Below, one piece after another: positions 4,353 to 39,459 of a stretch of DNA of 64,000 nt (positions are counted from its first letter, which is position 1; the number at the start of each line of letters is the position of its first letter). Where the stretch lies: positions 12,524,001 through 12,588,000 of the forward strand of contig NC_135813.1 in NCBI RefSeq assembly GCF_964213995.1, in the 5' to 3' direction. The notes below the pieces were generated by a model. It was not told the origin of the DNA. It worked only from the letters and a program-made list of their open reading frames with translations, and did not search any database. This DNA is from Mustelus asterias. Taxonomy: Eukaryota. The position numbers and the translations under genes were made by a program.

Positions 4353-4696
4353 GGGAGATTTACTTCCGGTGGAAGATCAGTGATGATGTGGAGATGCCGG
4401 CGTTGAACTGGGGTAAGCACAGATGTGATAATCTTCTTACTGAAGATTAGTGATCCAGATCAGTTTTTATGAAATTCCAATAATTTCATGATCATCATTA
4501 TTCCTGAGTCTAATTTGTTAGTTTCACGTTTATTAATTAATTTAACTTAGAATCCCGAGCTGCTAGGTTGGTGGGATTTGAATTTATACCTCTGGATTAC
4601 TAGTCCAGTCACATCTTCACAATGCAACTCTTCCTCTAAGTGTCTATAAAATGTAGTTTTCAAATGTCATTTTAAATTTTTGCATTTATTTCAGGT

Positions 4697-7105
4697 ATGT
4701 TTTCGATCGGTGATGTTTCAATTTTGGAGGACAATAAGCAACCTGCCTACAAGGTCTTCAAGCCTTGGTGGGACACTTTCATGGATTATCTGACCATTAT
4801 CATGTTGTTTTTGGCTATCTTTGGCTGCAGCATACAGCTTTACATGGATGAGACTTTCTGTTTGCCACATCCCAATAAAGATGGAAAGGCACCCGATGAG
4901 ATAGGTTCAGCCTTGCATAAAACTTCAAGAATATCCGATGACAGTACCAATCCGGAAGCACGTATGAATCCAAATGCACAGCCTTCTGTCCGCCAAGGGA
5001 GGGCTACAAAGTTATACGTTTGGCAGTACTGGTATGTCAATCAAATGTGTTATAGTCAAATTCCATGGTTTACCAGGTTCTTCTCTTATCTAATTCTATT
5101 CCACACAGTGGTCCTGATTATCTGCAGTAACTTCTGTTTCACATATCCGAAAACAAGCTCCAAATTGCAACAGTTCCTTGACATCCTTCAAAAGTGTTTT
5201 CAGTCACCTTGGACATCCAAAGCACTATCAACAGCAGTGTGTGTAGATGCCAGTGAACGGGAAGAAGCCTTGGCATCACAGAAGGCCTCTGACGATGACA
5301 GCGACAACATCAGCATTAAAGAAGATACATCAAATGTGAAACTCGCCACACGCATTCACTCAAACGTGACAGTGTCTGGCTCAACTATGGACAAAAAGGA
5401 TGCAGAACAGGCCAAAGCTTTGTTTGAGAAAGTAAGGAGATTCAGACTCCATGTTGAAGAGAAAGATACCATCTACAAATTATATATTGGCCAAACGTTG
5501 TTCAAAACAATACACTGCTTAATTATTATTGGTTACTTTCCAGCCTATATCTATGTTGTTAACTTTAATAATGTATGTGAACCTAATGCACTAAAATTGG
5601 TTATTTACAAGACTTTCGATTGTACTTATAGCACTGCTCGCTTTGTTGGGAAAATGGCTCTGCTATATTTGGGTTTAGTGATTATCTATTGGATACTCTG
5701 CGTCCACACAATATGTTGGGTCTTCAGGAAATCTCTCAAAATATATTCATTTGAGAAACGAGGTGAGAGCCAGTTCACTGATATCCCTGAGGTGACAAAT
5801 GACTTTGCCTTCTTGTTGCATTTGATTGATCAGTATGACACCCTATATTGCAAGCGTCTTACCGTCTTCCTCTCAGAGGTAAGTGAGAAAAAATTAAAAT
5901 TATTAAGTTTAAATAATGATTGGACAGTGGAGAAGGTGAAGCAACATTTGAAAAAGACTAAGAAGGATCAGTATGAGTTGTACCTCTTCATGCTATCAGG
6001 GATTCCTGAATCGGTCTACGAAGTTACCGACCTGCAGGTCTTAAGGCTGGAGCTTTGTAGTAATGTTAAAATATCCAACAAAATAACCCAACTGGAGCAC
6101 TTGGAAGAAATCTGGCTCTCGCATTGTGTGACCGAAGTTACCCCATCAGCTCTAATGTGGTTGAGGAATCAGCTGAAGAAAGTGGGAGTTAAATTTGTGA
6201 GTCGTGACGAAATCCCAGATTGGGTCTACAAATTGATCCAGCTCAAGGAGCTGTACCTCACTGGAAAGCTGGCCTTTGAGAAAAAAGGTTTGGAACTGGA
6301 ACCCATGAAGGGTCTCCGCTCTCTGAAGGTCCTTTACCTCAAAACAAGTCTCTCTAAGATACCTTCGACTATCATTGACGTTGCATTCCACCTGCTCAAG
6401 CTTTGCATTCATAATGATAAGACCAAGCTCTCGGGATTGAGTATCTTAAAGAAAATGGTAAATCTGACTCAAATTGAACTTCACAACTGTGAATTGGATA
6501 AAATCCCGACTGCCACTTACGCCTTATCCAAACTTCAAGTCTTGGACCTTAAAGGCAACAATCTTACCAAGATTGAAGATATTGTCAACTTGCAATTCCT
6601 GCAGAAGTTAACCTGTTTGAAGTTCTGGTTTAACATGATCAAGACCATTCCTTCAACTATCAATTTAATCAAGAAGCTTGAATATCTTTACTTGTCAAAC
6701 AACCTGATTGAGGTATTACCAAAAGTCCTTTTCACTATTGATAAGCTGCATTACTTGGATATACACCACAACAACATTTCTGTAATTCCCACAGATATCG
6801 GAAATCTGAAAAACTTGTACTATTTGGATTTAAGTTACAATAAAATAGAAACGCTGCCAGAACAGCTTTTCAAATGTAACAAGCTCATGACGCTCAAACT
6901 AAACAGCAACCTGATCTCGTCCATCAGCGGAAAGGTCTCCAAGCTCAGCCAATTATCCCAGCTGGAACTCCAAGGAAACAACCTGGAAAAACTCCCCCTG
7001 GAAATAGGGCAATGCCCTATGCTAAAGCTTAATGGACTTCTCATAGAACTGTATGTTATTGAGTCACTTCCTTTAGAAATAAGGGAAAAGATGGGTGGCA
7101 ATTAG
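4697..7105 (+). CDS. LRRC8 (volume-regulated anion channel subunit) family protein, divergent LRRC8D-like paralogue, single coding exon, 802 aa
   Basis: Intact ORF with LRRC8 hallmarks KPWWD, NQMCY, KCFQSPWTSKALS, DKKDAEQAKALFEKV, DIPEVTNDFAFLLHLIDQYD, four hydrophobic TM segments and a C-terminal LRR array. Splice acceptor ttttgcatttatttcag ends at 4694, two bases before the ATG. Family is certain; paralogue identity is not, so no symbol is given. Confidence 0.95.
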   Translation: MFSIGDVSILEDNKQPAYKVFKPWWDTFMDYLTIIMLFLAIFGCSIQLYMDETFCLPHPNKDGKAPDEIGSALHKTSRISDDSTNPEARMNPNAQPSVRQGRATKLYVWQYWYVNQMCYSQIPWFTRFFSYLILFHTVVLIICSNFCFTYPKTSSKLQQFLDILQKCFQSPWTSKALSTAVCVDASEREEALASQKASDDDSDNISIKEDTSNVKLATRIHSNVTVSGSTMDKKDAEQAKALFEKVRRFRLHVEEKDTIYKLYIGQTLFKTIHCLIIIGYFPAYIYVVNFNNVCEPNALKLVIYKTFDCTYSTARFVGKMALLYLGLVIIYWILCVHTICWVFRKSLKIYSFEKRGESQFTDIPEVTNDFAFLLHLIDQYDTLYCKRLTVFLSEVSEKKLKLLSLNNDWTVEKVKQHLKKTKKDQYELYLFMLSGIPESVYEVTDLQVLRLELCSNVKISNKITQLEHLEEIWLSHCVTEVTPSALMWLRNQLKKVGVKFVSRDEIPDWVYKLIQLKELYLTGKLAFEKKGLELEPMKGLRSLKVLYLKTSLSKIPSTIIDVAFHLLKLCIHNDKTKLSGLSILKKMVNLTQIELHNCELDKIPTATYALSKLQVLDLKGNNLTKIEDIVNLQFLQKLTCLKFWFNMIKTIPSTINLIKKLEYLYLSNNLIEVLPKVLFTIDKLHYLDIHHNNISVIPTDIGNLKNLYYLDLSYNKIETLPEQLFKCNKLMTLKLNSNLISSISGKVSKLSQLSQLELQGNNLEKLPLEIGQCPMLKLNGLLIELYVIESLPLEIREKMGGN

Positions 7106-7232
7106 ATCGAAAAGCGTCAGATATCAACAGCTTAGTTCCAAAGATGTCGATGTTTGGTGAAAACGACGCTGGGTGTAAGGAAGAAAGCAACCGATTGGAA
7201 CTAAATGAATCAAATGACCTAGATAGATTTTG

Positions 7233-7238
7233 AATAAA
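7233..7238 (+). terminator. Candidate polyadenylation signal of the LRRC8-like gene
   Basis: AATAAA about 130 nt after the stop codon, followed by T-rich sequence. Confidence 0.55.
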
Positions 7239-7357
7239 GCTTCTCATATGACATAATATTCTTACATTTTAATGGTTATACTTTATTAGTTAAGCCTTCT
7301 TTTCACTGAGATTTATGCTGGCTCAAATGTAGCACCAACATTACCTGCCATTTGTTC

Positions 7358-18596: not shown

Positions 18597-18755
18597 TTCA
18601 GGAAAGATGGCTTTGTTGCAATTGAAGGGTTTTTCACAGAAGATGAGTGTGACTCTCTGAGAGCACGGATTTCAGACATTATTGATGAGATGGAGGTTCC
18701 CCAAGAACTTCGCACTGAATTCTCAACACAAGAAACGGAGCAGCTTAACAGACAG
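18597..18755 (+). CDS. PHYHD1: PHYHD1 coding exon (FRKDGFVAIEG...EQLNRQ)
   Basis: ctccag| ... CAG|gtttgt; 159 nt; matches PHYHD1 FQQDGFLVLEGF...RTEFSTQEEEQLRAQ. Confidence 0.95.
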
Positions 18756-18897
18756 GTTTGTATTTAGGTGTGTGCGTGAAAGAACTTGGTGTTGGTGTGT
18801 GTTTGTCAGTGATCGCAGTGCGTGTGCCTATAGTGTTTTATGTGCATGACAGGGTGTCTACTTAAGGATGTGATATTTTAATTAATTAAAATGTTTA

Positions 18898-19292
18898 AAT
18901 GTTAGCCCAATCCATCATGCAAACCAGCCTCCCATCCATTGACTCTGTCTACACTTCCCACTGCCTCGGCAAAGCAGCCAGTATAATTAAGGACCCCACG
19001 CACCCCGGACATTCTCTCTTCCACCTTCTTCCGTCGGGGAAAGGATACAAAAGTCTGACGTCACGTACCAACCGACTCAAGAACAGTTTCTTCCCTGCTG
19101 CTATCAGACTTTTGAATGGACCTACCTCGCATTAAGTTGATCTTTCTCTACACCCTAGCGATGACTGTGACACTTCATTCTGCAATCTCTCCTTTCCTTC
19201 TCTATGAACGGTATGCTTTGTCTGTACAGCGCGCAAGAAACTATACTTTTCAATGTATGTTAATAGATGTGACAATAATAAATCAAATCAAA
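18898..19292 (+). mobile_element. Rex1-type LINE 3' fragment
   Basis: [14 protein letters not shown]...KNSFFPAAIRLLN; (aaatc)n tail. Confidence 0.9.
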
Positions 19293-19539
19293 TACCAAAG
19301 GAATGATAACTTGTTTCAGATTGACCCATAACCTTAAATTAAAGCCTTGCATTCTTTAGTTGGGAGGTGTCAGGAAGTGAATTACTCATTTGATTTGATT
19401 TATTATTGGCACTGGTACGAAAGCAAATGTGGTTAATCTCGTTGAAAAGTCCAATGGTTTTGTTGTTTATAAGAACACAAATAACTGAAGGATGAGAATA
19501 TTCCACGCAGACAAGTGAAGCTCGTGCCCCTGGTACTCA

Positions 19540-19861
19540 ATAGAATCCCGACGGTGCAGAAGGAGGCCATTTGGCCCATCGAGTCTGCACTGACAACAAT
19601 CCCACCCAGGTCCTATCCCTGTAACCCCACATATTTACCCTGCTAGTCCCCCCTGACACTAAGGGCAATTTAGCATGGCCAATCAACCTAACCCGCACAT
19701 CTTTGGACTGTGGGAGAAAACCGGAGCATCCGGAGGAAACCCACGCAGAGACGGGGAGAATGTGCAAACTCCACACAGACAGTGACCCGAGGCCGGAATT
19801 GAACTCGGGACCCTGGCCCTGTGAGGCAGCGGTGCTAACCGCTGTGCCACCGTGCTGCCCC
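19540..19861 (-). mobile_element. HE1-type V-SINE
   Basis: Same head, core and tail. Confidence 0.9.
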
Positions 19862-20226
19862 CTGTTATTTTAACTCTCCTGTTGAAGCATCCAACTGGAT
19901 TTTGAAAGCTCCAATTGTTTATAGCACAACTGTTCTCTCCTGGCAGGTTGTTCCAAAGGTTTTTTCAGTCTTTAAGTAAGGAACTTGCTCCTAATATCTG
20001 GTTTCAATTTATTTTTCACTAATGCATGCCATCAAACTCTCCTGACTTTCCATGGCTATTGGAGATTGAGAGGAATCCTTTTTTTTTCTTTGTCTTAATG
20101 CATTCCTGACTGGCCTCAGAAGATGCAGGTGAGCAAGTGTGTTGGTGGTTACATAGCGGATCTCTGCTTCATAACAAATTCTGGGTTGTAGAGATTCTGC
20201 TGTTAATTGTTGCAATTGTTTTTTAG

Positions 20227-20331
<105 letters not shown>

Positions 20332-20902
20332 TAATTAATAAAAGAAACATTTGCATTTATATGACGCCTTTATTATCACAGTGAAGCACTTCACATAATG
20401 AATTATCTTTTTGAAGTACAGTTACTTTTGTTATAAGAGCATAAGAACTAGGAGGAGGCCATCTGACCCCCTCGAGCCTGCACCACCATTCAATAAGATC
20501 ATGGCTGATCTTTTCGTGGGCTCAGCTCCACTTACCCGCCCGCTCACCCTTAATTCCTTTACTGTTCAAACATTTATCTATCCTTGCCTTAAAAACATTC
20601 GATGAGGTAGCTTCCGCTGCTTCACTGGGCAGGGAATTCCACAGATTCACTTCCCTTTAGGTGAAGAAGTTCCTCCTCAACTCAAACCAAAAATTGAGAC
20701 TTTTACACACTTCAAATCCCTGATAAGCAGCAGTCCATTCTGATTGTTGTGATGCACTGTCAGCTTGTGAAAATATAATTGTTCTGATTGTCAATTCTCT
20801 GCTTGTCCTTTCTTTTGAGTCTATTTCTATCTAAAATAATAATCTAACTATTTTCAGAGGCCCTTCCTGCTATTTCAGGAATGCTTTAGTGATCTTAGTT
20901 GA

Positions 20903-22327
20903 TGTTATGACTGGACAGGAAGATTCCAGAATGGAATCTTGGCGCACAAGACTGTAACTTTTACTACTTTTTAATAAAAACATGAAGGAACAGAATCACA
21001 GGACCTCTAATTCGTTTTAACAACAGGGGAAAAAATTAAACATAAAAACGTTGGATTATAATATAATACTCCTTTACTCCCCCCACACACACATTTTAAT
21101 TAACACAATTACAAAGTATATTGTAAGTTACAATGTTCTCATTAACACAACATACCTTTAAACACACAGATTGGTTGTGGTCAAATACACACACTCCACT
21201 CTGAACCCAAGTTAGTATCTGGGTATTTCTCCTCAGAGTCTTACCAGATGATTGTCACATGAGAGTTTTCAAACTCCATTCCCAAAATATGCTTTAAAAT
21301 CTTCATTCATAATAATACTTTCCTTTAGTGGTTTGTATTCCAAGATCAGATCCACGTTTTCTAAATGATACTTTTAAGAAAAGCTTCTCCTCCACTTTCA
21401 ACAGTAAATCCAGTCCAGGATTTACATCGACACCTTTAGGATTTTTTTGGCTTGACTGCTGTACAAGCTGTTCACAATTGATTTAACTCTCAATTTCCGG
21501 ACTCTAATAAAATGGTATCAAATGTTTCATTTACCTCTGAAATCTGCTATCCTACCTTAAATTTGGTACTACAATTGTCTCTTTAAGTCAGTAAAAAGTC
21601 TTGCAACACGAAGTTAACTTTAACTCAGATCACTTTCTTCCTTGCATTTTTCTGTTAAATATCTTGGTCTCTGTTCTTTTAACTCGAGGCATCTTAGACA
21701 TTCCTTTTGTTCCAATTCTCTGGTTATATGAATTGTAATTTGTCCCTTAGGAAGCCTGCATCTTTACAACTCCCTTGTCCTGTCTAGCTTCTCCTGGCAG
21801 AATTGAGAGAGGTTCATTCCCTGTTTATTTGATTTGATTTATTGTTGTCACATGTGTTGGGATACAGTGAAAAGTATTGTTTCTTGTGCATTATACAGTC
21901 AAAACATACCGTTCATAGAGTACGTAGGGGAGAAGAAAAGGATAGGATGCAGGACAGCGTGTTGCAGTTGCAGGTAGGGTGAAAAGAGTTGGAGTTCAGT
22001 TTTAAGAGCATAAAACGTTAGTAAAAGATGGAATTGGGGGATATGCTAAACTTAAAAAGCTTTTCTATCTTACAAGGGCTCCAGTTGCAAAGCAACAACT
22101 GCTACTACTATTTATTCTTCATACTGTAACCCTCTCTAAGCACAATAGAATCACAGTTGGAATTGAAACCAATCCCCAAACATACAAACACCTTTGTTCA
22201 GCATGAATCTAACTATAGGTTTTACCCTTCCAGGGACAGAAATATTAAACACACTCAGAATTATACCTTAATTCTAATGTCTACCAATACAAATATAAAT
22301 CCCTTAAAACAACCTTTGTTTTCTTGC
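20903..22327 (-). mobile_element. Probable solo LTR with nested Rex1 tail; diverged inverted partial copy at 22375-22565
   Basis: Ends ...cataaca on the minus strand; second copy begins tgttaggaaaacaa and matches about 21800-22160 in reverse; non-coding and AT-rich. Confidence 0.45.
21824..21985 (-). mobile_element. Rex1-type 3' tail inserted in an LTR-like sequence
   Basis: Matches the tails at 3780-3920 and 32541-32690. Confidence 0.75.
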
Positions 22328-23202
22328 TTCTGAGATGTTGCAAAATGTCCAGCATGTTTGGAGAGATAATAAAATTGTTAGGAAAACAATGGTTGTGATT
22401 CTATTGGGCTTAGAGAGGGTTACAGCATGAAGAATAGAAGTAGCAGTCATTGCTTAGCAACTGGAGCCCTTGTAAGTTAGAAAAGCTTTTAAGTTTTAGT
22501 TTTAGCTGGTTATATTGCATTTGGAGACAGGACACCAGGGAGCAAACCTCTCTCAACTCTGCCACCTAATTGGATGGTTCTACTAAAAAAGCCATCTCAG
22601 GCATGGTGGATTGAATGATCTCATTCTGTGTTGCATCATTCTATGATTTTCCCATAGCTGTGACTGCACTTCACTAAGATATTAAAGGCACCATATAAAT
22701 GCAAGTTCATGCCTTCTGACAATGTAGAACGTGTATCAATATTTTGGAATGAAACTGCTCCTTTTTTTAGATGTCATTTGTCCTCATTCTTAGTTCTGCG
22801 GGTGAGAGTTGATGGATTTCCTCCACTATGCCATTCTGTAATAATTACCTAGAAAGTGACAAATGACAGATGAGGGATGCCTCTTCCCCTCTCCCCATGG
22901 TCTCCAATTGGATAGCACTCTGATATACCATGGCTTAAGATCAGGGACCCAGCAAGGAATAATAGCTGTCAACACTTGTGCAGTGCGTTGAACCTCCACC
23001 ATGGCAACAAACATCTGTTCTTTATGGTACAATTATTGTTTTCTTTTCCTGCCCTAAAACTGCTGACTCCTGTTGGGATACCGTTCCAAGGACACTGGCT
23101 GTCCTCTAGTACATTGCTCATTCTTCATGTCTGGACTTTGACAGTGAATGATGTATTTAGTGGCAAGGATTTACAGTGGATATCAGTCACCTTTTCATTT
23201 AA

Positions 23203-23508
23203 TATAGAATCCCTACAGTGTAGAAGGAGGCCATTTGGCCCATCGAAGCTGCACTGACCGCAATCTCACCCAGGCCGTATTCCTACATATTTACCCTGCT
23301 ACTCCCCCTGATGCTAGGATCAATTTAGCATGGCCAATCAACCTAACCCACACATCTTTAGAGTGTGGGAGGAAACCGGAGCACCCGGAGGAAACCCACG
23401 CAGACACAGGGAGAACGTGCAGACTCCACACAGACAGTGTGACCTGAGACCAGAATTGAACCCAGGTCTCTGGTGCTGTGAGGCAGCAGTGCTAACCACT
23501 GTGCCGCT
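23203..23508 (-). mobile_element. HE1-type V-SINE
   Basis: Same head, core and tail. Confidence 0.9.
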
Positions 23509-23806
23509 CCGTGTATATTCACTGTTAAAGGGAATCACTGCGCAGCGTTCATGAGTGGAGACTTTGCTGTTTATTTTCTGTTCTCTCCCTCCATAACCCA
23601 GGGGCAAGAAGGCTATTTGTGCCCAGGCTAACAACACAGATAAGGTTCAGACCTGGGACCTTGTAAATGGCTGAACTACTCACCAGCAAGTGTATCTGCC
23701 AACTGAGCAACTGAGAAGTCTAAAATCCTTAGGTGAATTAGAAAGATGTCTTACTGAGCCAGGGCAGATCAGGTATCCATTCATTCTCATTTTCTTCTTT
23801 GTTCAG

Positions 23807-23854
23807 GTGACTTTCTTATACCAAAGGAGAAATCCTTAAATAAAATTGGACACG
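23807..23854 (+). CDS. PHYHD1: PHYHD1 coding exon (DFLIPKEKSLNKIGH)
   Basis: gttcag| ... G|gtaagg; 48 nt; conserved NKIGH. Confidence 0.95.
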
Positions 23855-24351
23855 GTAAGGTTACTGTTTCACACTACTTGGGAACAAAGAGAATGGTTCC
23901 ATATTTTCTTATTCTGTCTGAAGAAGCATCAACACATTCTTCTGAGGGGGCCATCAGCATTCACTCCAAGCTTTAGTGAAATTATTAGATTCCAAATGTC
24001 AGCAAAATGCTCATAAAGCAGACGGAAGCATTGAGTGAATTGAAAAGCCTTTTGTATCTCCTCAACAGGCTGGTTTTTAACCTGCTCATTGGGCCTTCTG
24101 TTTATCAGGGAAGGAGCTGTTGAAGGTTTTTCCGCTCCTTAACCCAGACAAACTGAGACTGATTGAAATAATCCCATTGCAGCAAAACTGAAACCAAATG
24201 TCTCCGCACAGAGCAATAAAGTCTGTTAGAAAACCCGACTGATGTTCTGTGCGAGAATGTTCCAACCTGAAACACTAGTTTCATATGGTGTTTTCTTTTG
24301 GATATTAGCAAGAAACATTCACGGAAACAGTGAGAACTCAGACCTCTCTTT

Positions 24352-24692
24352 CATAGAACCATAGAGTAGAATCATAAAATCCCTACAGTGCAGGTGAAGG
24401 CCATTCAGCCCATCGAGTCTGCACTGACCACAATCCCATGCAGGGCCCATTCCCGTAACCCCACATATTTACCCTGCTGATCCCCTTACACTAGGGTCAA
24501 TTTAACATGGCCAATCAACCTAACCTGCACATCTTTGGCCTGTGGGAGGAAACCGGAGCACCCGGAGGAAACCCATGCAGACACAGGGAGAATGTGCAAA
24601 CTCCTCACAGACAGTGACCCAAGCCAGGAATCGAACCCGGGTCCCTGGTGCTGTGAGGCAGCAGTGTTAACCACTGTGCCACCATGCTGCCC
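24352..24692 (-). mobile_element. HE1-type V-SINE
   Basis: Same head, core and tail. Confidence 0.9.
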
Positions 24693-24919
24693 ATTTTTAT
24701 CATTATTGAGTGATTATTATGCTTTTGTTTAAAAATTAAGCTTCTACAAGCACCTTACGTCAGCTGGGACCCTGTATTGTAATGAAAAGAAATCTGATTG
24801 ATGGGACAGTAAGATTATCCTCCAAGTGGGTCCCACCGGTCATTAATTCTAGTGTTTCATTTTCTGCAGGGTATCTCTCTTGCTCAGAGACTCACTCTTA
24901 ATATAATTCTTCTCCACAG

Positions 24920-24975
24920 CTCTTCATGCTTTGGAACCTACATTCAAAAATCTCACACATTCACTCAAAGTTCAG
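24920..24975 (+). CDS. PHYHD1: PHYHD1 coding exon (LHALEPTFKNLTHSLKVQ)
   Basis: ccacag| ... CAG|gtgggt; 56 nt; phase agrees with both neighbours. Confidence 0.95.
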
Positions 24976-25509
24976 GTGGGTATATCTTGAGTGTACGATA
25001 AGTGTGATGGAGTGTCTCTGTAATTACTAGCATATGGGAATCAGCACAGCAGTCATGCCTGATAAAGGTGATCATGTTACATGAGACTGAAATGGCTCGT
25101 TTGGAGAGCCAGTGCAGACACGACGGGCCAAATGGCCTCCTTCTGCGCCGTAACAATTCTGTGATTTCAAATTGACTGGGAACCTGGTAGAAGGCAATAA
25201 AACTTTTGCTGAATTCAATTTTAGCAACACCTTCTCATCCCCAACCCTACAAACAGTTTCTTTTCGGTACGTCATCCAAAAGATCTCCAGTTAATTATTG
25301 CAAAGAGCCAATTCATTGTATAAGTGCCATTCTTAGGACACCCATTTCAATCCCCTTCTGGCTGCCCTCTGAAGCCGAACCAGACCATTTGTGGCCTCAA
25401 TACTCTGTTTGGCCCTGAGCTGAGATTCCGAGCCCATATCCTCTCCATCACCAAGATGGACCATTTTCATCTCTGTCACCTGTTCGTGTCCTGTCCTTGT
25501 ATGAACCTA

Positions 25510-25960
25510 TAAATTAGGAGCAGGAGTAGGCCATTCAGCCCCTCAAGCTTGCTCTGCCATTCAATAAGATCATGGCTGATCTGATGGTGGCCTCAATTCC
25601 ACATTCCGCCTACTCCTGATAACCTTTGACTCCCTTGTTAGTCAAGAATCTATTTACCTTTGCCTTAAACTTACTCAATGATCCTGCTGTCCAGTTAAAA
25701 GAGTTCCAAAGATTCCTGATCCTCTGAGAGAAAAGCATTGTTCTCATCTCGTCTTAATTGGAAGGGCCCTCATTTTTAATCTGAGTCCCCTAGTTCTGGT
25801 CTCTCTCACAATGGGAAACATCTTTTCAGCACCCGCCTTGTCAAATCCTCTCAGGATCCTATATATTTCGATAAGATCACCTCTCAGGCTGCTAAACTCT
25901 AATGGATACGAGCCCAGCCTGGCCCAGCCTTTCCTCAAAAGATAACCCCCCCTACCCCAG
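25510..25960 (-). mobile_element. CR1 LINE 3' fragment
   Basis: LRGDLIEIYRILRGFDK; CR1 tail at 25510. Confidence 0.8.
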
Positions 25961-26564
25961 GTTTCACCTGTGGCTGCAATCTGGATCGAGGCTTTTGTTA
26001 ACTTCAGATGAGAACGCACTGATGGCCAGTGTCTACCTTCCACCCTCTGTAGACTTGCTGCCTATGTCCTCTCTTGCAGTCAGCCCTGTGCCCACTGATC
26101 TACATTGGTTCCTGGTCCAGCACTGTCTCCAATTTAAAATTCCCATTCTTGTGTTCAAATCCCCCTTGATGCAAAGACCAATTCACAGAATGAAGTACAA
26201 GTGTGCAGTGGGGGCAAGAACTGTAGACTCACTTTTGTGTAATGGGGGTTACCAGAAATATTTTTATGTGGATCATAAAGAGGCGTTGCCCCTCGTTATC
26301 TCTGTAACCTCCTCCAGTCCCACAACCCTCCATATTTTTGATATTTACTGCATTTTTAAATGTTGCTTCTGAAGTTGGTAAAGATATCATTGGGACCTAT
26401 GTTTGTGATTTTGATTGTCTAAATGCGCGTCCTTGGCTTAAGCTTCAGAACAGACATCCACAAAGTCGATATGGACAATGAAGACTATTTGCTCCATTCT
26501 ACATGATCTACTTAAAAATATTTCTAGTAACCCCTGTTATAATCCAGGTCAGAAACTCCAAAGT

Positions 26565-27306
26565 GTTTTATGAAATCTGCCTGGATCATGAGTTTTGCAA
26601 TTTGAATTTGGCTAGGGTAAGCGTGAGATGTTTCACTTCAGGCATGATTCAAATGACCCACCCGGGAGCTTTTATCAAACAAAGTTTATTTAAGAATACA
26701 GTTAATATATAGCAATAACTTTTACCAATTACAAACAAGAAAAAAAATCATGATATTGTAGAAAGCTTAACAACTAAATGCAATGTTCCAACCAAACAAA
26801 CTTCCCTATAAACATACACCTGCCACAGGTTTAGCACAGAAAACAAGGATGCTCACGTGATGCTGGAACTTAATCCTTTGGTTGGAGAATTGAAACTCTG
26901 TCTTCCCAAACTTGTAACTTCCAGCAGATCTGGAGGTAGAGATGATGCCACTGCTGGCTTCTAGCTTTTAACCAATGAACCACCGCAAGAGACAGAATTC
27001 TCACTCCAGGAAGGCAAGAAAGAGAGAGAAAACCTGCCGGCGTCCAGCCTGAAGTAGAACACCTTCTAACTAAAACAGCACCCAGTGGGCCAAAACTGAA
27101 AGTGAAAGAACTCCTACCACCTGACCTGTCAATCATTCTTTCTCCAGCAATTCAGGGTCATAAAAATCCCGGACACAACATGAGGCCCAGAATAAAAATA
27201 AACAAAACCCCATTTAAGCAGCAATAAAAGAGACTTCTCATCAGACAGTTCAGGGCTTGCTTATATATGATTAAAAATACATTTCTTAAAGATACACTAG
27301 TGTCAC
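26565..27306 (-). mobile_element. Probable solo LTR
   Basis: Minus strand begins tgtgaca, has AATAAA near its end (tttatt about 26685) and LTR-like composition; no second copy in the window. Confidence 0.4.
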
Positions 27307-27593
27307 ACCCCCATTACAGAAAAATGATTCTCCAGTTTTTGGCCCCCACTCAGACTTGTACTTCATTCTGTGAATTGGTCATTGCATCAAAGCTTCTTGA
27401 CTTTAGTTAGTTTGAACCTGAACCCTTTGTCCTATTGCTAATTTCACTTAATTATCTAGATTTGCTTTTTCTATGCCTTTTAATATTGACTATGCCCATG
27501 CAAGATACCTTCTTCATGCCACCTTTTAAAGCTGAAAATGTTGATTTATCTGGCCTTTAATCAGTCCTCTGATGCTGATGATCAGCCTCACAG

Positions 27594-27885
27594 ATGGCAC
27601 AGTGGTTAGCACTGCTGCCTCACAGCGTCGGGGACCCGGGTTCAATTCCCGGCTTGGGCCACTGTCTGTGTGGAGTTTGCACGTTCTCCCCGTGTCTGCG
27701 TGGGTTTCCTCCGGGTGCTCCGGTTTCCTCCCACAAGCGGAAAAATGTGCTGGTTAGGTGGATTGGCCGTGCTAAATTCTCCCTTAGTGTACCCGAACAG
27801 GAGTGTGACGACTAGGGGATTTACACAGTAACTTCATTGCAGTGTTAATGTAAGCCTACTTGTGACTAATAAATAAGCTTTAAAA
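27594..27885 (+). mobile_element. V-SINE with alternative tail
   Basis: HE1-like head and core, then ...cacagtaacttcattgcagtgttaatgtaagcctacttgtgactaataaa. Confidence 0.88.
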
Positions 27886-28114
27886 CTTTAAAATTGTCCA
27901 TGTATCTTGACTGCGTTGGTTTTATATCCATATGAGTGAAGGAAAAAAAATGACCAAAGGCTTCCTGTTGCTGTTACTGCCAGTGAGCTATGTGAGTGCA
28001 GCTTTAAGAGGTTTGAGTGCAGGCAATTCGGCCACCCTCATTGCTCAACGTAGGTCTAAAGAAAGACTAGAAAGTATATATCCACTGTTAAATGAATCTC
28101 TCTCCGTGTGACAG

Positions 28115-28177
28115 GAGGTCGCCCAGAAGTTAGAACTAAAGGAACCTGTCATTGTGCAGAGTATGTATATCTTCAAG
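28115..28177 (+). CDS. PHYHD1: PHYHD1 coding exon (EVAQKLELKEPVIVQSMYIFK)
   Basis: gacag| ... AAG|gtatgt; 63 nt; conserved QSMYIFK. Confidence 0.95.
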
Positions 28178-28359
28178 GTATGTTGGAAATTGTTTATCTG
28201 CTTTCACTCTCAGTGACTCGGTCGGACTGGAAGCTGAAATTTAGGCCATTTAGAAATCATAATACAATCAAGCAGTCAACATGGTTTCATGAAAGGGAAG
28301 CTGTGTTTGACAAATTTATTAGAGTTGTTTGAAGATGTAACAAGCAGAGTGGATAAAAA

Positions 28360-28715
28360 CAATGGAATACAGAAAATAGGAGCAGGAGTAGACCATTCAG
28401 CCCTTCGAGCCTGCTCCGCCATTCAATATGATCATGCCTGATCCTGTATCTCAACACCATACTCCAGCACTCTCCCCATCACCCTTGACGCCTTTAGAGT
28501 CTAAAAATCTATCTATTTCCATTTTAAATATATTCACTGATTTGGCCTCCACAGCCTTCTGTGGAAGAGAACTCCACAGACTCACCACACTCCAAGTGAA
28601 GTCTCCCCTCATCTCAGTCCTAAATGGCCTAACTTGTATCCTGAGACTGTGACCCTTTGTTCTGTACCCCAGCCAGAGGAAACAACATCCCTGCATCCAG
28701 CCCTGTCTGAATTTT
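28360..28715 (-). mobile_element. CR1 LINE 3' fragment
   Basis: RTKGHSLRI...VVSLWSSLPQKAVEA; CR1 tail. Confidence 0.82.
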
Positions 28716-28745
28716 AAGTTTCAAGCAGCGTCATTGAAGGGGAAA

Positions 28746-29170
28746 TCATAGAATCAATAGAATGCCGAAGAGGCCATTCAGCCCATCGAGTCTGCACCAA
28801 CTCTCTGACAGAGTATCTTATCCAGCCCCTCTCGCCTGCCCTATTGCCATAACCCCACACATTTCCCACAGCTAATCCATCTAACGTATTTATCTTGGGA
28901 CACTAAGGTGCAATTTAACATGGCCAATCCACCTAACCTGCATATCTTTGGACTGTGAAGGTCATAATGAACCACATGACAACCCAGTAGTTCGTGATCA
29001 TAGAATCCCTACAGTGCAGAAGGAGGCCAATCGGCCCATCAAGTCTGCACTGACCACAATCCCACTCAGGCCCTATTCTCATAACCCCATGCATTTACTC
29101 TAGCTAGTCCCCCTGACACTAAGGGGCAATTTAACATGGCCAATCAACCTAACCCACACATCTTTGGACA
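28746..29170 (-). mobile_element. Two 5'-truncated HE1-type SINE 3' halves
   Basis: 28746-28957 and 28998-29170 contain only the tail and end of the core. Confidence 0.8.
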
Positions 29171-29498
29171 TCATTAATGAATTATATTCCAGATTGATTA
29201 ATCAATTGAATTTTAAATTTTCCCAGTTGTCTTGGTGGGATTTGAATTCATGACCCCGGGGCATTAGTTAGCCACTTTATTACTACAGTGCTGGATTACT
29301 GATCCAGTAACATTACCACTATGTTATCGTCCATCTAATTACTGAAATGGACCTACTAGTAAAATACTGAAGGCAAAAACATGGAAAACTCTAAGAGCTA
29401 GCAGGGGGGAAAGCTATAAATTTGTGAATGAAAATGAGAAGGTGGCAAATGGTCATCCTCCTCTGTCTATCTTATCTATTATCAGCTTGTTGGGTCCA

Positions 29499-29738
29499 TC
29501 TAAAGGCGTCAAGGGTGATGGGGAGAGTGCTGGAGTATGGTGTTGAGATACAGGATCAGGCATGATCATATTGAATGGCGGAGCAGGCTCGAAGGGCTGA
29601 ATGGTCTACTCCTGCTCCTATTTTCTATATTCCAATGTTTTTATCCACTCTGCTTGTTACATCTTCAAACAACTCTAATAAATTTGTCAAACACAACTTC
29701 CCTTTCATGAAGCCATGTTGACTGCTTGATTGTATTAT
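29499..29738 (-). repeat. Inverted 240-bp copy of 28259-28498 flanked by a 14-bp direct repeat
   Basis: Four mismatches by eye; ttgttgggtccatc at 29487-29500 and 29743-29756. Confidence 0.92.
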
Positions 29739-30197
29739 AAGTTTGTTGGGTCCATCCATTCGTTTGAACAGATGAGGGGACAGCACTGATACAAGTTTTA
29801 AAATGGTTTTCTTTCATTGAACAGAACTTAAAACATTAACATGACAAGCAAAAAGAAAAAGCAGACTTGGAGACTGGCTTCTACTGCCAGCTCCTTAACT
29901 GAATGGATCTCAAAAACAAAGTGAAAAACACACACTAAAATCCAATCTATGTTTCAACTGTTATCTCGTTATCTCCGACTTAGAAAAACAATCCTTGCAG
30001 CTGTGGTTATGTTGCTGTTTGCCTGCATTGTGTACCCTTCAGGAATGCAGGCAGTTTTTCGCTAATCTTTAGCCTTCTGATTCTTCTTGTAGTCAAGTTA
30101 TCAAAGATAGTTGCATAGGCAGAAATATCTTAAAATGAAGTATTTGCATAGACTGAAGCAAGCAGGGCTAAATATACATGGGGGGGCGGGGGGCGGG

Positions 30198-31075
30198 GGG
30201 GGTGATTCTCCCAAAAAAGTTCTAAGTGCTGAATTTGTGGGAAAACTGGTGTAAATCACAATTTTATTTTTCAGTGGGAGTTCACACTCGAATCGGCCAC
30301 ACTCTGTGCAGTGCAAAGGTCACAATCGTGAATATCATTAATAGCCCGGGGGGCGGAGCTTATTCATGCCAGAGTCTGACATTCACGGATCTCTGCACAT
30401 GCGCAGTGGCCTCGAACTGTCAGTCTGTAGCTCGCTGGCCTGCTTGATCATGGCCAGCCTGGGCCCCTCGCAATGCTGCCCCCCAACCCCCATCCCCGGC
30501 CAAATCGTGGCCCCCATGAGCATTCGCGGTCCAGTCCCGACCCCCCCCCCGCCCCCGGCAGTGATTATTCCCCCACCCACGGGAGGCAGACCCCCCAGCA
30601 GACACCCCCACCCCTCTGCAAACCCCCCATCACAGAAAGCAGACATCCCCCAGCAGACCAACTGCCCCCCCCCTCCACCCGCCACCCCCCCCCCGCCCCC
30701 CCCCCCCGCCCCCCCCGCCCCCCCCCCCCCCCCCCCCCCGCCCCTCCCCCCCCCCCCCCCCCGCCCCTCCCCCCCCCCGCTAGTTCCCCGAAAGTGGGGA
30801 GCTAGTCTGAACCTTGCTGGCGTGAAATTGCACTGATGGGGTGGGAGATGCCAAGGGGCTGGGGAATTCAGTCCTGGGCCTGATAATCACATTTAAATAA
30901 GATTAAAAATAGATTTAAATCACTTACCAGCAAGCTGTTCCCGTTGGTTTCCAGCGTGGTCCTGACTACGCCGGATATCTGGCACTGGGAAATGCGGGTG
31001 CGTCGGAAACGCATGTGTGAATCCTGCGAATCGTCCGACACGCGATTCTCCCAGCGGGATGGGAGCATCGTCCCC
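30198..31075. mobile_element. Non-autonomous DNA transposon with about 16-bp terminal inverted repeats and an internal poly-C tract
   Basis: Left gggggtgattctccca, right tgggagcatcgtcccc; CpG-rich interior; no credible ORF. Confidence 0.6.
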
Positions 31076-31607
31076 AGGATCTCTCAAAGCTACAGAGCAA
31101 AAGTGTTTGAGTACCTTATCTGTTTAATGTTTTGTTGGTGTTAATTAGTAGCAGCTCAGAGCGCTGACCCTCTCTAATATTTAACACTTGATGCAACACT
31201 AGATTTTTTTATAACATCCTTTGCCATGCTGGTTTCACCTCCAGGGTTTATACTAATGAAGTCACTCACCTACTTAATGACTACTGCTTGGGATGATCAT
31301 GTATCTGTTATGGACATGCTAAGAATTTGTTTTTTTTAATCTTCACACACACTTACTCCCCTTTGGGGAATAGTGAAGAGATGAAGGAAGGATTTCTGGG
31401 CTAATAATCAGCCCATTGAATCATATCATGAATGTTCCTTCCATGGTCAATGGGTCCTAGAGCTTCTGGTCCAGACGGAGGGCACTGCCACTGTGTCACA
31501 AGGCCTCTTTTGCTAAAATTATTAGCCATGTTACTGAACTTCTTCAGTTCAATCCCGTGTTAATTATCATGTACTAATTGGGTTGAATGATTTGTCTCAG
31601 GATAGTT

Positions 31608-31807
31608 NNNNNNNNNNNNNNNNNNNNNNNNNNNNNNNNNNNNNNNNNNNNNNNNNNNNNNNNNNNNNNNNNNNNNNNNNNNNNNNNNNNNNNNNNNNNN
31701 NNNNNNNNNNNNNNNNNNNNNNNNNNNNNNNNNNNNNNNNNNNNNNNNNNNNNNNNNNNNNNNNNNNNNNNNNNNNNNNNNNNNNNNNNNNNNNNNNNNN
31801 NNNNNNN
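31608..31807. other. Assembly gap (200 N)
   Basis: Exactly 200 n, typical of a fixed-size scaffolding gap of unknown true length. Confidence 0.99.
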
Positions 31808-31909
31808 GGCGAAAGGCAAGAAAGTGGAGTTAAACCCATAATCATGTCAACCATGACCTGTTTGAATGGCAGAGCAGGCTCGTGAAGCCAAATGAAGCAA
31901 AATATTTAA

Positions 31910-32213
31910 TCACAGAATCCTACAATGCAGAAGGAGACCATTCGGCCCATCAAGTCTGCATCGACCACAATCCCACCCAGACCCTATACCCACAACCCTA
32001 GCTAGTCCCCCTGACACTAAGGGACAATTTTAGCATGGCCAGTCCCCCCAACCTGCTCATCTTTGGGCTGTGGAAGGAAACCAGAGCACCCCGGAGAAAC
32101 CCACGCAGACACGAGGAGAATGTGCAAACTCCACACAGACAGTGACCCAATCCCGGGAATTGAACCCTGGCGCTGTGAGACAGCAGTGCTAACCCACTGT
32201 GCCACCGTGCCAC
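31910..32213 (-). mobile_element. HE1-type V-SINE
   Basis: Same head, core and tail. Confidence 0.9.
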
Positions 32214-32540
32214 CTCTTTCAGATGTAATGTTTCCTTGCACTATGTAAATGTTTTGGGTTCAGTGCAGTTTTTAAATTAAAAGGTATGCAATATTATCAT
32301 GTGTTCATGAAATATTATAAAAGCCAAGTGTATGTGTTGATTTGCCAGTGTTTTATGGTTTGGAGTTGAAGATTACAGGCAGCCTGAGAATAGGCAATTT
32401 GCCTGGAACTTGCCTTAGTGGCTCTCCCGATGTAGTTGACTAAGTTTATGTAGTGAGCTCCTAGGCAGTACGAACCAGGTTGGATTGTATTCTACCCCCG
32501 ACCTGTGCTCATAGAATCACAGAACAGTTGCAGCACAGAA

Positions 32541-34385
32541 TTTGATTTGATTTGATTTATTATTGTCACATGTATTGTATACAGTGAAAAGTAATGTTTC
32601 TTGCACGCTATACAGACAAAACATAGCGTTTATAGAGAAGGAAGGGAAAGAGTGCAGAATGTAGTGTTACAGTCATAGCTAGGGTGTAGAGAAAGATCAA
32701 CGTAATGCAAGGAAGGTCCATTCAAAAGTCTGATGACAGCAGGGAAGGAGCTGTTCTTGAGTCGGTTGGTGTGTGACCTCAGACTTTTGTATCTTTTTCT
32801 TGATGGAAGAAGGTGGAAGAGGGTATGTCTGGGATGCGTGGGGTCCTTGATTATGCTGGCTGCTTTTCCGAGACAGCAGAAAGTATAGACGGAGTCAATG
32901 GATGGGAGGCTGGTTTGTGTGATTGACTGAGCTTCATTCATGACCCTTTGTAGTTTCTTGTGGTCTTGGACAGAGCAGGTGTCATACCAAGCTGCGATAC
33001 AACCAGAGAGAATGCTTTCTGTGGTGCATCTGTAAAGGTTGGTGAGAATTGTAGCGGACATGCCAAATTTCCTTAGCTTCTTGAGAAAGTAGAGGCATTG
33101 TTGGGCTTTCTTAACCGTAGCGTCGGTATGGAGGGACCAGGTGATCTGGACACCTAGAAACTTGAAGCTTTCAACCATTTCCACTCCTTCATGTCCTCCA
33201 CTACGCTTCCTGAATTTGATGACTATCTCCTTCATTTTACTGACATTGAGGGAGAGATTATTGTTGTTACACCAGTTCACCAGCTTCTCTATTTCTTTCC
33301 TGTACTCCGTCTCATCATTGTTTGAGATCCAATCCACTACGGTGGTGTCGTCAGCAAACTTGAAAATCGAGTTGGAGGGGAATCTGACCACACAGTCATA
33401 GGTGTATAAGGAGTATAGTGAGGGGTTGAGAACACAGCCTTGTGGGGCACTGGTGTTGAGGATGATCGTGGAGGAGGTGTTGTTGCCTATCCTTACTGAT
33501 TGCGGTCTGTGGGTTAGGAAGTCTAGGATCCAGTCACAGAGGGAGGAGCCAAACCCTAGGCCACAGAGTTTGGAGATGATTTTTGTGGGAATAATGGTGT
33601 TGAAGGCTGAGCTGTAGTCAATAAATAGGAGTCTGACGTAGGTGTGTTTGTTATCCGGGTGTTCCAGGGTTGAGTGTAGGACCAGGGAGATGGCATCTGC
33701 TGTGAACCTGTTGCAACGATAGGTGAGCTGTAGTGGATCTAGGCAATCTGGGAGGCTGGAATTGATTTGTCCCATGACTAACCTGTTGAAGCACTTCATA
33801 AGGTGAGGTGGGCAGCACGATGACACAGTGGTTAGCACTGCTGCCTCACAGCGCCAGGGACCTGGGTTCAATTCCTGGCTTGGATCACTGGCTGTGTGGA
33901 GTCTGCACCTTCTCCCCGTGTCTGCATGGGTTTCCTCTGGGTGCTCTGGTTTCCTCCTACCATCTGAAAGACGTGCTAGTTAGGTGCATTGGCTATGCTA
34001 AATTCTCCCTCAGTGTACCCGAACAGGCGGTGGAGTGTGGCGACTAGGAGAATTTCACAGTAACTACATTGCAGTGTTAATGTAAGCCTACTTGTGACAC
34101 ATAAATAAACTTTAAACTAATGATGGAAGTCAGAGCCACCGGATGATAATAATTAAGGTAAGCTGCCTGGCTTTTCTATGGTACAGGGATGACGGTTGTC
34201 TTCTTGAAGCAGATAGGGACCTCAGATTGGTGTAAAAAGAGGTTAAAGATGCCTGCGAATACCCCCGCTAGCTGATTCACGCAGGATCTAAGTTCTCGTC
34301 CAGGTACCCCTTCCGGGCCAGTCGCTTTCCGTAGGTTGACTTCCGAGAAGGCTGATCTGACGTCTGTGATGGTGACCTTGTATAC
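32541..34385 (-). mobile_element. Rex1/Babar-type LINE (RT and 3' end), interrupted by a SINE at about 33808-34120
   Basis: [60 protein letters not shown]; tail aataaatcaaatcaaatc. Confidence 0.92.
33808..34120 (+). mobile_element. V-SINE with alternative tail, inserted in Rex1
   Basis: Same alternative tail; Rex1 sequence resumes on both sides. Confidence 0.88.
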
Positions 34386-34787
34386 TGGTTTGGCCAGGCT
34401 TCCGGGGCAGAAGGTGTGCTTTGGCTGACCTCTTGCTCAAAATGGCCATTCTGCCCCTCGTGTCCGGTTGTCCTTCCGCTTGCTCTTGTAACTGGATAAT
34501 AGTAAAAGGAATATCACCAATGTCGTTCCTCACCAGAATCGTGACTGATTCTTATGTAATGATTTTGTCTTTCCTCAGCAATAATCTTATTGTTTGCTCA
34601 GTTACTTTTGCTCCTCTGTCCCTTTTGTTGTAAACAACGGGAGGGATATGAGGTCACATTGGTGATGTAGTGAGTGATGGGTTTGCCAGCACTTAGAGGA
34701 AATGGTGGGGGTGTGTGCTTTTCCCATCTCCTCCAGGTCGATCGACCGAGCCTCAACTTCTTGCTTCTTGTAGGTGGAACTTGATGA

Positions 34788-35051
<264 letters not shown>

Positions 35052-36112
35052 TGACATTGTCCATTAGTTATGAAATCTCAAATCTCAGCTGTGGTAAAAT
35101 TATGTTTTTTTTCCATTTGTTCCTGCGATTTGGGTGTCTCTGGCAAGGCTAGCATTTGCTCCCAACCCCTAATTGCCCTTGAATAAGGTGGTGAGCTGCC
35201 TTCTTGAACTGCAAGCTGTTCATGTGGTGTAGGTACAGTTAGTTCCAGGATTTTGACCCAGCAACAGTGAAAGAATGGCGATATAGTTCCAAGTCAGGAT
35301 GGTGGGGGACTTGGAGGAGAACTTTTGTTCCTATGTGACTGCTGCCCTTGACCTTCTGGTGGGTTGGAGGTTGTGGGTTTGGAAGATGCTGTCCAAGAAG
35401 CCTTGCTGAGTTGCTGCAGTGCATCTTAAGCAGGTGGTACACTGGATGGAAGTCATTGCATAGGCAGAGTTGCAAGATGGGAAGATAGAGGCACCTCAAG
35501 CCATTCTCTTGTTTTTTATTATTAATTAATTTAAACATTTATTAATTAATGAGGGACATGGGCATTGCTGGCTGGCCTGCATCCCTACCTGCCCTTGAAA
35601 CTGAGTGACCTACTAGGCCATTTCAGAGGGCAGGTGAGAGTCAACCACATTGCTGTGGCTCTGGAGTCACATGTAGGCCCGACCAAGTAAAGATGGCAGA
35701 TTTCCTTCCCTAAAGAACATTCGTGAACCAGATAGTTTTTTCCGACAATCGTTTCATGGTCATCAGTAGATTCTTAATTCCAGATTTAAAAAAAAATTGA
35801 ATTCAAATTCCACCAGCTGCTGCAGCGGGATTTGAACCCGGGTCCCCAGAACATTAGCTGAGTTTCTGGATTAATAATCTAGCGATAAGACCACTAGGCC
35901 TCTCTACAGACCAGACAGTAGGTCTCCTTCTTGCTTCCTCATCTATGGGAAGTATGGTGCATGGGTAGAAAATTTGTGAAGAAACCCTCATAACTGGAAA
36001 ATCCAAATAAAACATGATACAAAAATGTGCATTATTAGTGATTGAAAATCTAAGACACTGCATAAAGTCTGTTTATGCCCATTATACAGCACTTTGTTTT
36101 TCTGCCTGACAG

Positions 36113-36229
36113 TTGGTATTACACGGAGGATGGTACGAGCCCCAAAGGGAGAATATCCTCTGATTCAGTTTACCGGAAAGGAGCGTGATTATCCAGATGA
36201 TGAATTCATTCCTGTTCCAGTTAAAAAAG
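36113..36229 (+). CDS. PHYHD1: PHYHD1 coding exon (GITRRMVRAPKG...PVPVKK)
   Basis: tgacag| ... G|gtagat; 117 nt. Confidence 0.95.
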
Positions 36230-36319
36230 GTAGATGGCCATTTGTATTACATTGGGATGATAATGGACATTGATGGCGACGCTTTGTATTGTATTGAATG
36301 CCCCCCCCCCCCCCCCCCA

Positions 36320-36830
36320 AACCCCCCTACAGTGCAAGGGGGGGGGGGGCATTCGGCCCATCCAGTTTGCAGTGACCATCCGAAAGAGCATCTTACCCAA
36401 GAAGCCCCATCCCCATAATCCGGTGCATTCAGCATGGCCAATCCAGCTAACATGCACATCTTTGGACTGTGGGAGGAAACCAGAGCATCCAGAGGAAACC
36501 CACGCAGACACGAGGAGAATGTCCAAATTCACACAGTCAGTGACCCGAGACCGGAATTGAACCCAAATCCCTGGCGCTGTGAGGCAGCAGTGCTAACCAC
36601 TGTGCCACCCCATGTTTATCCGTGTATATTCACTGTTAAAAAACAATCACTGCACAGCGATCCTAAGTGGAGACTTTTGTGTTTTTTTTTGTTCTCTCCC
36701 TCCTTAACCCTGGGGCATGAAGGCTATTTGTGCCCAAGCTCCACATAGACAGTCACCCGAGGGTGGAATCAAACCCGGGTCCCTGGCGCTGTGAGGCAGC
36801 AGTGCTAACCACTGTGCCACCATGCCACCC
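36320..36830 (-). mobile_element. Composite HE1-type SINE: extra head (36740-36830), about 120 bp of captured sequence, then a full SINE
   Basis: Two SINE heads separated by sequence shared with 23511-23629. Confidence 0.82.
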
Positions 36831-37427
36831 TGGTAGCTCCATATATTGTGGTCAAAAGTTGCTGACATAAACTGTAGCTATAGAATATCAGGGGGACATG
36901 ATGAGTAATGATGTTGGTGCCTCTGATGATGTCAAAAATACTTGTGATCACCTTCAAAACCATGAGATTATATTCCTACGTTGAACTCAGCTCCTGTTAC
37001 TCTTGTGATTATTCAGCCTATGGCTACGGCCACTGGTTTTTGGTTTTCACAGAAAAACAAATGGAATCGTAGAACATGATCTTCAAAATACTGGTTAAAA
37101 TGATTGTGCAATCGAAATAGGTTGGATTTTATCCAAGCCTTAATGTAATTCTCCATCCTATATAGCAGGAAATGGTCTAGTGTCCTGAGTCCCTGTACTG
37201 TGGGCGTGAGGATGTAGGGAGAGGAAAGCAGAGGGGAGGTGGCAAGACTAAGCCAACTAGGAAGGAAGCGATATGTGAAGTGGCACCTGAGCCCAGAACA
37301 CTACCCGAGAGTTTGGTCTAAAAGTATTTTTGGCGTAGTCCTCAAAACAGGCAGGCCAGGTGAGTGTTTTGTCATCTGGCGAATGGTAACTTGCTAAAAT
37401 TAGGCTGTGTTTGATGGTATACCATGT

Positions 37428-37765
37428 GTAGAATCACAGAATCATTGAGTCCATACAGTGCAGAAGGAGGCCATTTGGCCCATCGAGCCTGCACCAACAA
37501 CAATCCCATCCCGGCCCTGTCCCCGTAACCCCACATATTTACCCTGCTAGTCCCCCTGACAATCAGGATCAATTTTAGCATGGCCAATCCACCTAGCCCG
37601 CACACCTTTGGACTGTGGGAGGAAACTGGAGCATCCGGAGGAAATCCACACAGACACTGGGAGAACGTGCAGACTCCACATAGACAGTGAACCAAGGCCG
37701 GAATTGAATCTGGGTCCCTGCCGCTGTGAGGCAGCAGTGCTAGCCACTGTGCTACCGTGCCACCC
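37428..37765 (-). mobile_element. HE1-type V-SINE
   Basis: Same head, core and tail. Confidence 0.9.
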
Positions 37766-38099
37766 AGTAGTCGTGATGTTTTACTCTGCTACATCATTGC
37801 AAGCAACAGAGTAGGCAGCAGCCTAATCTGTAGAGGTTTAGAAGTATTTTTATAACAGTGGAAGAAAAATTCTCTAAAAGGGGAAAAAGAACAGTGCTGC
37901 CCTGTTGACTGCCATATTTTCCTTGGAGACGGTAAGAAATGTAAGTTCAGAAAGACTGAAACATTTGTGCAGATATTGAGTTAGTTGGCCAGAGTTAACA
38001 AAAAGAAAGGCCCAAACATTAACTGGTGCTGCACCTTGATTCATGGGACTGTACATAGAAAGCAGTCTAGTACGTTTACAGTTTAACATGATGAATAAG

Positions 38100-39332: not shown

Positions 39333-39459
39333 GTGGGCTGATCCTCATCCATGGAGAGATTGTGCACAAAAGTGCTGCAAACACGTCAGATAAATCGAGG
39401 CACGTCTACACTTTCCACCTGTTGGAATCTCAGGATAGTCACTGGAGTGAGGAGAACTG
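39333..39459 (+). CDS. PHYHD1: PHYHD1 coding exon (GLILIHGEIVHKSAANTSDKSRHVYTFH...EENW)
   Basis: atgcag| ... TG|gtgagg; 127 nt; distal His (VHK) and the 2-oxoglutarate-binding Arg (SRH) are present. Confidence 0.96.

Follow-up and report, generated by a model that had tools for sequence, protein, structure and literature searches.

A shark, Mustelus asterias, carries near its LRRC8A gene a further intact gene of the LRRC8 family, and the question is what this gene is: a displaced LRRC8A or LRRC8D, a decaying duplicate, or a VRAC subunit of its own lineage. We studied it in a window of 64,000 nucleotides (assembly GCF_964213995.1, contig NC_135813.1, positions 12,524,001 to 12,588,000 of the forward strand) and call it the Q gene, and its product the Q protein. 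The explanation that we prefer, and regard as probable in its entirety, is that the Q gene represents a D-family lineage of cartilaginous fishes only, which arose in the first vertebrate genome duplication (1R), was copied in tandem, and encodes a predicted accessory partner of LRRC8A with an altered pore. We are highly confident of the evolutionary identity that this explanation gives to the gene.

The features considered are collected in Table 1. Translation of the plus strand bears out the intact, single-exon LRRC8 gene of the initial annotation: it is one open frame with zero internal stops. All motifs quoted there are in place (MFSIGDV at residue 1, CLPHP at 55, NQMCY at 115, KALSTAVC at 175, DKKDAEQ at 232). 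As a marker CLPHP held in part: orthologues also lack the second cysteine, but the residues after CLP vary among them, so the motif is not diagnostic. The probable splice acceptor would imply an upstream non-coding exon, and the same layout precedes the ATG in L004, L006 and L007.

Table 1. Features of the Q gene, its surroundings and the LRRC8 loci of the genome (window positions unless a contig is named)
Feature	Position or loci	Strand	Remarks
Q gene, complete single-exon CDS	4697..7105	+	802 aa, P0001; D-family LRRC8 subunit, member of the Q clade
Probable splice acceptor of the Q gene	4676..4694	+	pyrimidine tract and AG ending 2 bases before the ATG
Candidate polyadenylation signal	7233..7238	+	AATAAA, the sole AATAAA/ATTAAA within 7106-9000, 128 bases past the Q gene stop
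Pore domain, Pannexin-like four-TM	4697..5920	+	aa 1-408 of the Q protein
Leucine-rich-repeat domain, cytoplasmic	5921..7102	+	aa 409-802 of the Q protein
Tyr49 of the Q protein	4841..4843	+	pore-lining Thr48 site of LRRC8A/D; common to Z
Tyr107-Val108-Trp109 of the Q protein	5015..5023	+	selectivity-filter site, Asp102-Arg103-His104 in LRRC8A
Three PhyH-domain exons, synteny marker	18597..39406	+	exons at 18597, 34857 and 39329; PHYHD1 by position
Dolichol kinase (DOLK), synteny marker	50443..52116	-	single exon
L002, tandem sister (Z)	G000:C13:12511123-12513495	+	single-exon, 13 kb upstream of the window start
LRRC8 loci on C13	L006, L002, Q gene	+	all on the plus strand
LRRC8 loci on C8	L007, L005, L003, L010		B-C-D cluster chromosome
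LRRC8 loci on C19	L008, L004, L009		L009 distant from both others

The product is an LRRC8 protein. It matches Pannexin_like (PF12534; E 6e-104) and LRR families in Pfam. Among PDB sequences LRRC8D is the top match at 797 bits, followed by A at 745 and C at 733. Cys55, Cys118, Cys294 and Cys309 are extracellular and invariant across 85 LRRC8 proteins. A model folded from 85 aligned sequences (pLDDT 79) has four TM helices, LRRC8 structures rank first in its Foldseek search, and its LRR domain superposes on those of LRRC8A/C structures with a TM-score of 0.94-0.97.

Some database models of this gene and its orthologues are defective. The protein deposited for the locus (P0002, 753 aa) starts at a later Met and lacks the N-terminus (window 4697-4843); the catshark model of 766 aa is shortened in the same way, and the electric-ray model merges both tandem genes. 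In all named sources the orthologues are annotated as "LRRC8D-like", "hypothetical" or "uncharacterized". The stingray entry is one protein under three accessions; several accessions per protein in NCBI practice usually correspond to RNA-supported UTR variants, which is at most an indirect sign of transcription.

The neighbourhood is that of LRRC8A, which in human adjoins PHYHD1-DOLK-NUP188. The PhyH exons and dolichol kinase lie downstream of the Q gene, and 6-13 kb beyond the window end come the sole two Nup188_N matches in this genome, each of them weak (E 5.8 and 9.6), in agreement with the synteny first proposed. The window also contains LINE-type endonuclease and reverse-transcriptase frames at 14100-17359 (+), 32630-33979 (-) and 61403-62173 (-), and an N gap of 200 bases (31608-31807).

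The genome itself has at least 10 LRRC8 loci belonging to four subfamilies; 10 is a floor, as the genome search used a stricter first look. The true LRRC8A (L006; 1467 bits to mouse A) spans the region from 41 to 35 kb upstream, its last exon being 35 kb before the window, and has the late intron that had been expected of LRRC8A. The true LRRC8D (L003; 1498 bits) sits in the B-C-D cluster on C8. Thus the Q gene is neither LRRC8A nor the only LRRC8D of this genome. Behind LRRC8A stand two D-family genes in tandem, of which the Q gene is the second. The first, L002 (Z), is 49% identical to the Q protein; it keeps an Asp-x-Gln filter and has the same Tyr at the Thr48 site. Its lineage is also limited to chondrichthyans. 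The order Z-then-Q can be read in the fused electric-ray model, and the pair carries consecutive accessions in chimaera and bamboo sharks. Within 258 kb around the locus, tblastn with eight subfamily queries revealed no C/E or X remnant. The proposal of a "sixth type of VRAC subunit" therefore stands as to an extra subunit and falls short as to number: the extra LRRC8 loci of this genome are five, the Q gene included.

Some of the other loci deserve description. L010 (C8:124.08 Mb) and L009 (C19:2.21 Mb) belong to an unnamed fourth subfamily, X, and each adjoins AKAP95-domain exons. Members of X occur in lamprey, chimaera, coelacanth, sturgeon and amphibians under the automatic names "C-like" or "A-like"; the filter residue of L010 is Arg, as in LRRC8A. 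AKAP95-domain matches number 67 genome-wide and are scattered, many with stop codons, which suggests a repeat-borne or retrocopied domain. L004 (C19:23.75 Mb) represents a third D lineage, D19, and adjoins an E-like gene; its relatives are found in lungfish, gar, bowfin, perch and a frog, and a rattlesnake has a fused E+D-like model. The E-like gene, L008 (C19:23.79 Mb), is of C/E type and on the expected chromosome, its grouping with frog E being supported at 88/76 only. Wei and Zhang (PMC4316641) report that LRRC8E was not found in shark, in contrast to this locus. The canonical LRRC8D of the shark (L003, C8:124.12 Mb) has Glu-Tyr in place of the mammalian Asp-Phe143.

The relationships were assessed with a 66-row FastTree tree and a 33-row maximum-likelihood IQ-TREE tree under LG+C20. 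The 33 rows were hand-picked from about 440 proteins, leaving aside near-duplicates and the majority of teleosts and of long branches. The trees are unrooted, there being no invertebrate LRRC8 among the sequences retrieved. Four subfamilies emerge: A/B, which includes cyclostome sequences; C/E; X, made up of L009, L010 and sequences from chimaera, coelacanth, sturgeon, amphibians and a lamprey; and the D family (100/99). The Q and Z clades, each with a chimaera member, are sisters (100/100), and the sister group of this pair is canonical D with D19 (the latter two joined at 100/98). D19 is represented by L004, lungfish and gar, to which the 66-row tree adds bowfin, perch and a frog. AU tests rejected the grouping of Q with A (p-AU 8e-72), with D (p 9e-60) and with X (p 4e-34), of Z with C/E (p 2e-6), and of the Q+Z pair with D (p 0.006) or with D19 (p 0.004). 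Two readings by position fell with these tests, namely Z in the C/E slot and the Q gene in the X slot. The placement of Q is unchanged when Z is removed, and also in pore-only and LRR-only trees. The fast rate of the Q lineage makes a deep placement more exposed to long-branch error. Q and Z have in common two deletions and 14 residues absent from the majority of any other group, which argues against a long-branch join of the two.

The Q gene is thus a member of the D subfamily: it forms a clade with D and D19, has a single coding exon and lies on a paralogous chromosome. It is not an LRRC8D orthologue, as it is outside the D clade and the B-C-D cluster and has no Phe143, nor an LRRC8A orthologue, as it is outside the A clade and lacks Arg103 and the late intron.

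The chromosomal context points to genome duplication as the source of the lineage. The three chromosomes with LRRC8 genes also bear the three best Dynamin_M matches of the genome and the three HR1 loci with several exons, one of which lies 250 kb from LRRC8B; both X genes are flanked by AKAP95-domain exons. On C17 (76.3-76.55 Mb) five or more Dynamin_M loci stand in tandem, with both orientations represented, and may form an Mx-like cluster. Family searches for KYAT1 (9/38 candidates scored) and TIMM44 did not place these genes near LRRC8 clusters. According to Lamb 2021 (PMC8040251), block 9A holds DNM1/PKN3/LRRC8A, 9C holds DNM3/PKN2/LRRC8C and 9D holds DNM2/PKN1/LRRC8E, and the first duplication parted A,B from C,D. 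The shape of the D-family tree, (9A pair)(9C, 9D), corresponds to the duplication order in that study. The same study treats A, C and E as one trio, whereas our trees join A to B, and C to E. An ancestral tandem cluster A/B - C/E - D - X would have been multiplied by genome duplication; the 9A copy would have retained A and D, and D would then have doubled in tandem before the chimaera-shark split. The Q/Z lineage was likely born in 1R, a date that rests on topology and synteny, as no cyclostome D-family sequence was found and there is no invertebrate outgroup. The initial annotation had offered either a genome-duplication paralogue of LRRC8D or an old tandem duplicate, and each part proved partly right: the gene goes back to a duplication copy that was later doubled in tandem.

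Retention in cartilaginous fishes, also proposed at the outset, is evident. The protein searches retrieved 25 proteins more than 58% identical to P0001, two of them from the window itself, and orthologues are present in 20 named chondrichthyans (sharks, rays and one chimaera). In a search with a Q+Z profile (7998 candidates scored), chondrichthyan members reached at least 1221 bits, and the next single-gene proteins among the best 120 of 994 matches were canonical D at 1074 bits or less. Two bony-vertebrate proteins ranked above canonical D, P0012 and P0014, and turned out to be fused models of other LRRC8 genes. There was no further Q-like cluster among 50%-identity representatives, no Q orthologue of bony vertebrates in the protein searches and no cyclostome orthologue among the retrieved sequences. 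Judging by these protein searches, the lineage is likely absent from bony vertebrates. Full-text searches, whose scope excludes subscription papers and Abascal and Zardoya 2012, gave no description of the extra chondrichthyan LRRC8 genes and no match to the name "LRRC8F". In the Q clade, cartilaginous fishes have a real and conserved lineage of D-family VRAC subunits, apparently undescribed and of predicted function.

Codons 1-398 were compared with the contig of one related organism by the Nei-Gojobori count, omitting four codons where the alignment had been locally redone. They differ by 24.5 synonymous and 47.5 non-synonymous changes, giving dN/dS of 0.49 (p 0.01). With the borders of the two variable loops set by hand, the ratio is 0.33 outside them (p 0.0006) and 1.06 within them. 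Neutrality, which would have spoken against a working gene, is therefore rejected for the N-terminal half. The shark and chimaera proteins are 63% identical for Q vs 88% for LRRC8D; 351 columns are invariant among 11 Q orthologues; and the Q protein retains 193/231 family-conserved columns, the other 38/231 being altered. These comparisons indicate a gene that is under purifying selection and yet fast-evolving.

The most pronounced changes are in the pore. Mammalian filter residues are Arg103 in A, Leu in C and Phe143 in D, where the Phe is credited with pore widening (PMC13586245 and PMC12795811). Across 24 Q orthologues this residue is Val, Ile or Asn in 22 and Tyr in 2. The preceding residue is Tyr, Phe or His in place of Asp, the following one is Trp in 24/24, and the Thr48 site has Tyr in 23/23 orthologues that cover it. 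As in LRRC8D, the residue at N-terminal position 8 carries no charge. The sites of Asp102, Trp143, Pro126 and His312, conserved in LRRC8A, are all substituted, and the intracellular loop is not A-like. We infer that the Q gene is transcribed. Mammalian channels all require A and another subunit, and A:D channels assemble 4:2 (PMC13586245). By analogy with 4A:2D, the Q protein is predicted to be an accessory, minority subunit that joins LRRC8A in the hexamer. It quite probably works in this A-dependent way. Swelling-activated channels of LRRC8A and the Q protein would have an altered pore, in which the uncharged filter residue would dilute the Arg103 ring. Such a dilution would likely lower anion selectivity and favour neutral osmolytes. 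R103A is known to give measurable Na permeability (PMC6451053) and LRRC8D to confer taurine flux (PMC4687416). That the Q protein raises organic-osmolyte permeability is a prediction from residues to which we give slightly less than an even chance.

Two features of the pore tell against the explanation given above: the bulky Tyr49, Trp109 and Tyr107 could narrow or disable the pore, and the filter Phe of D, linked to a wider pore, is not kept. This Phe being absent and the new aromatics perhaps narrowing the pore, a damping subunit is possible. Such a silent or inhibitory Q protein would join LRRC8A and damp or close the channel, so that volume regulation is tuned downward. The invariance of Tyr49 and Trp109 among orthologues and the four substituted LRRC8A sites speak for it; charge at Thr48 in LRRC8A strips the gating lipids (PMC12795811). 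However, the same paper reports that a change of Thr48 in the D subunit alone left A:D gating unaltered, and the Q protein keeps its fold, cysteines and most conserved sites. We regard this possibility as unlikely. A channel independent of LRRC8A, built of Q homomers or of both tandem D-like proteins, would fit the persistence of the pair in chimaera, sharks and rays and the derived residues and deletions that Q and Z share. The LRRC8A intracellular loop is, however, required for activity (PMC6028502), and with its different loop the Q protein is very unlikely to act in this way.

The identity of the gene could also be read differently. A later chondrichthyan-specific copy of LRRC8D, moved beside LRRC8A and pushed outward in the trees by fast divergence, would account for the long Q stem branch, for orthologues solely in cartilaginous fishes and for the lack of a cyclostome one among the retrieved sequences. 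It is improbable, only marginally less so than the independent channel: the AU tests that reject Q, or the pair, with D employ a site-mixture model, and the locus is the very site that a duplicated A/B-C/E-D-X cluster predicts for a D copy. As to a decaying, non-functional duplicate, the fast rate and a dN/dS close to 1 within both variable loops are what one would expect of it. We find this hardly credible in view of a frame that is open in 20 named species on both sides of the chimaera split, the 351 invariant columns and the constraint on the core.

Among known proteins, LRRC8D (PDB 6m04, 9dx7, 9t5m) is the closest named relative of the Q protein (49% identity). The two share the single coding exon, the uncharged position 8 and filter, and the D-family residues P123, D235 and P296. 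They differ in the filter (Y-V-W vs D-F-Q), in Tyr vs Thr48, in the two deletions common only to Q and Z, in rate, the Q gene being much faster, and in location. With LRRC8A (SWELL1, the obligatory VRAC subunit) the Q protein shares the fold, the four extracellular cysteines and the locus (41 kb apart), but it is 46% identical and lacks Arg103, the A-type intracellular loop, the late intron and the second Cys after CLP. The history of the gene resembles that of "cryptic" ohnologues such as Bmp16, CHST16 and nanos1A/B, retained by cartilaginous fish or lost from amniotes, which are genome-duplication copies overlooked because model species lost them. Unlike these, the lost LRRC8 copies all belong, as subunits, to a single combinatorial channel, and the five extra loci occur together in one genome.

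The selectivity of VRAC is set by the subunits that join LRRC8A, and five subunits are counted in the field. The set of ten genes revises the history of LRRC8: A goes with B and C goes with E, while X and the D lineage next to E survive as additional lineages in certain amphibians, reptiles and fishes. The Q protein, a natural subunit whose filter is rebuilt and whose lipid-gate site holds a bulky residue, offers a tool at hand for the study of selectivity and gating. The VRAC of skate hepatocytes is an outlier, with Na/Cs permeability of about 0.2 of Cl and choline of 0.55, vs 0.02-0.04 elsewhere (PMC6363415), and the Q lineage is a testable candidate cause. In a broader conjecture, which we put forward tentatively and consider rather doubtful, an early four-gene cluster (A/B, C/E, D, X) left up to ten subunits in cartilaginous fishes, whose Q/Z VRACs, with a charge-poor rebuilt filter, would carry TMAO, taurine or urea and would explain why the swelling-activated current of skate liver cells is unusually permeable to cations.
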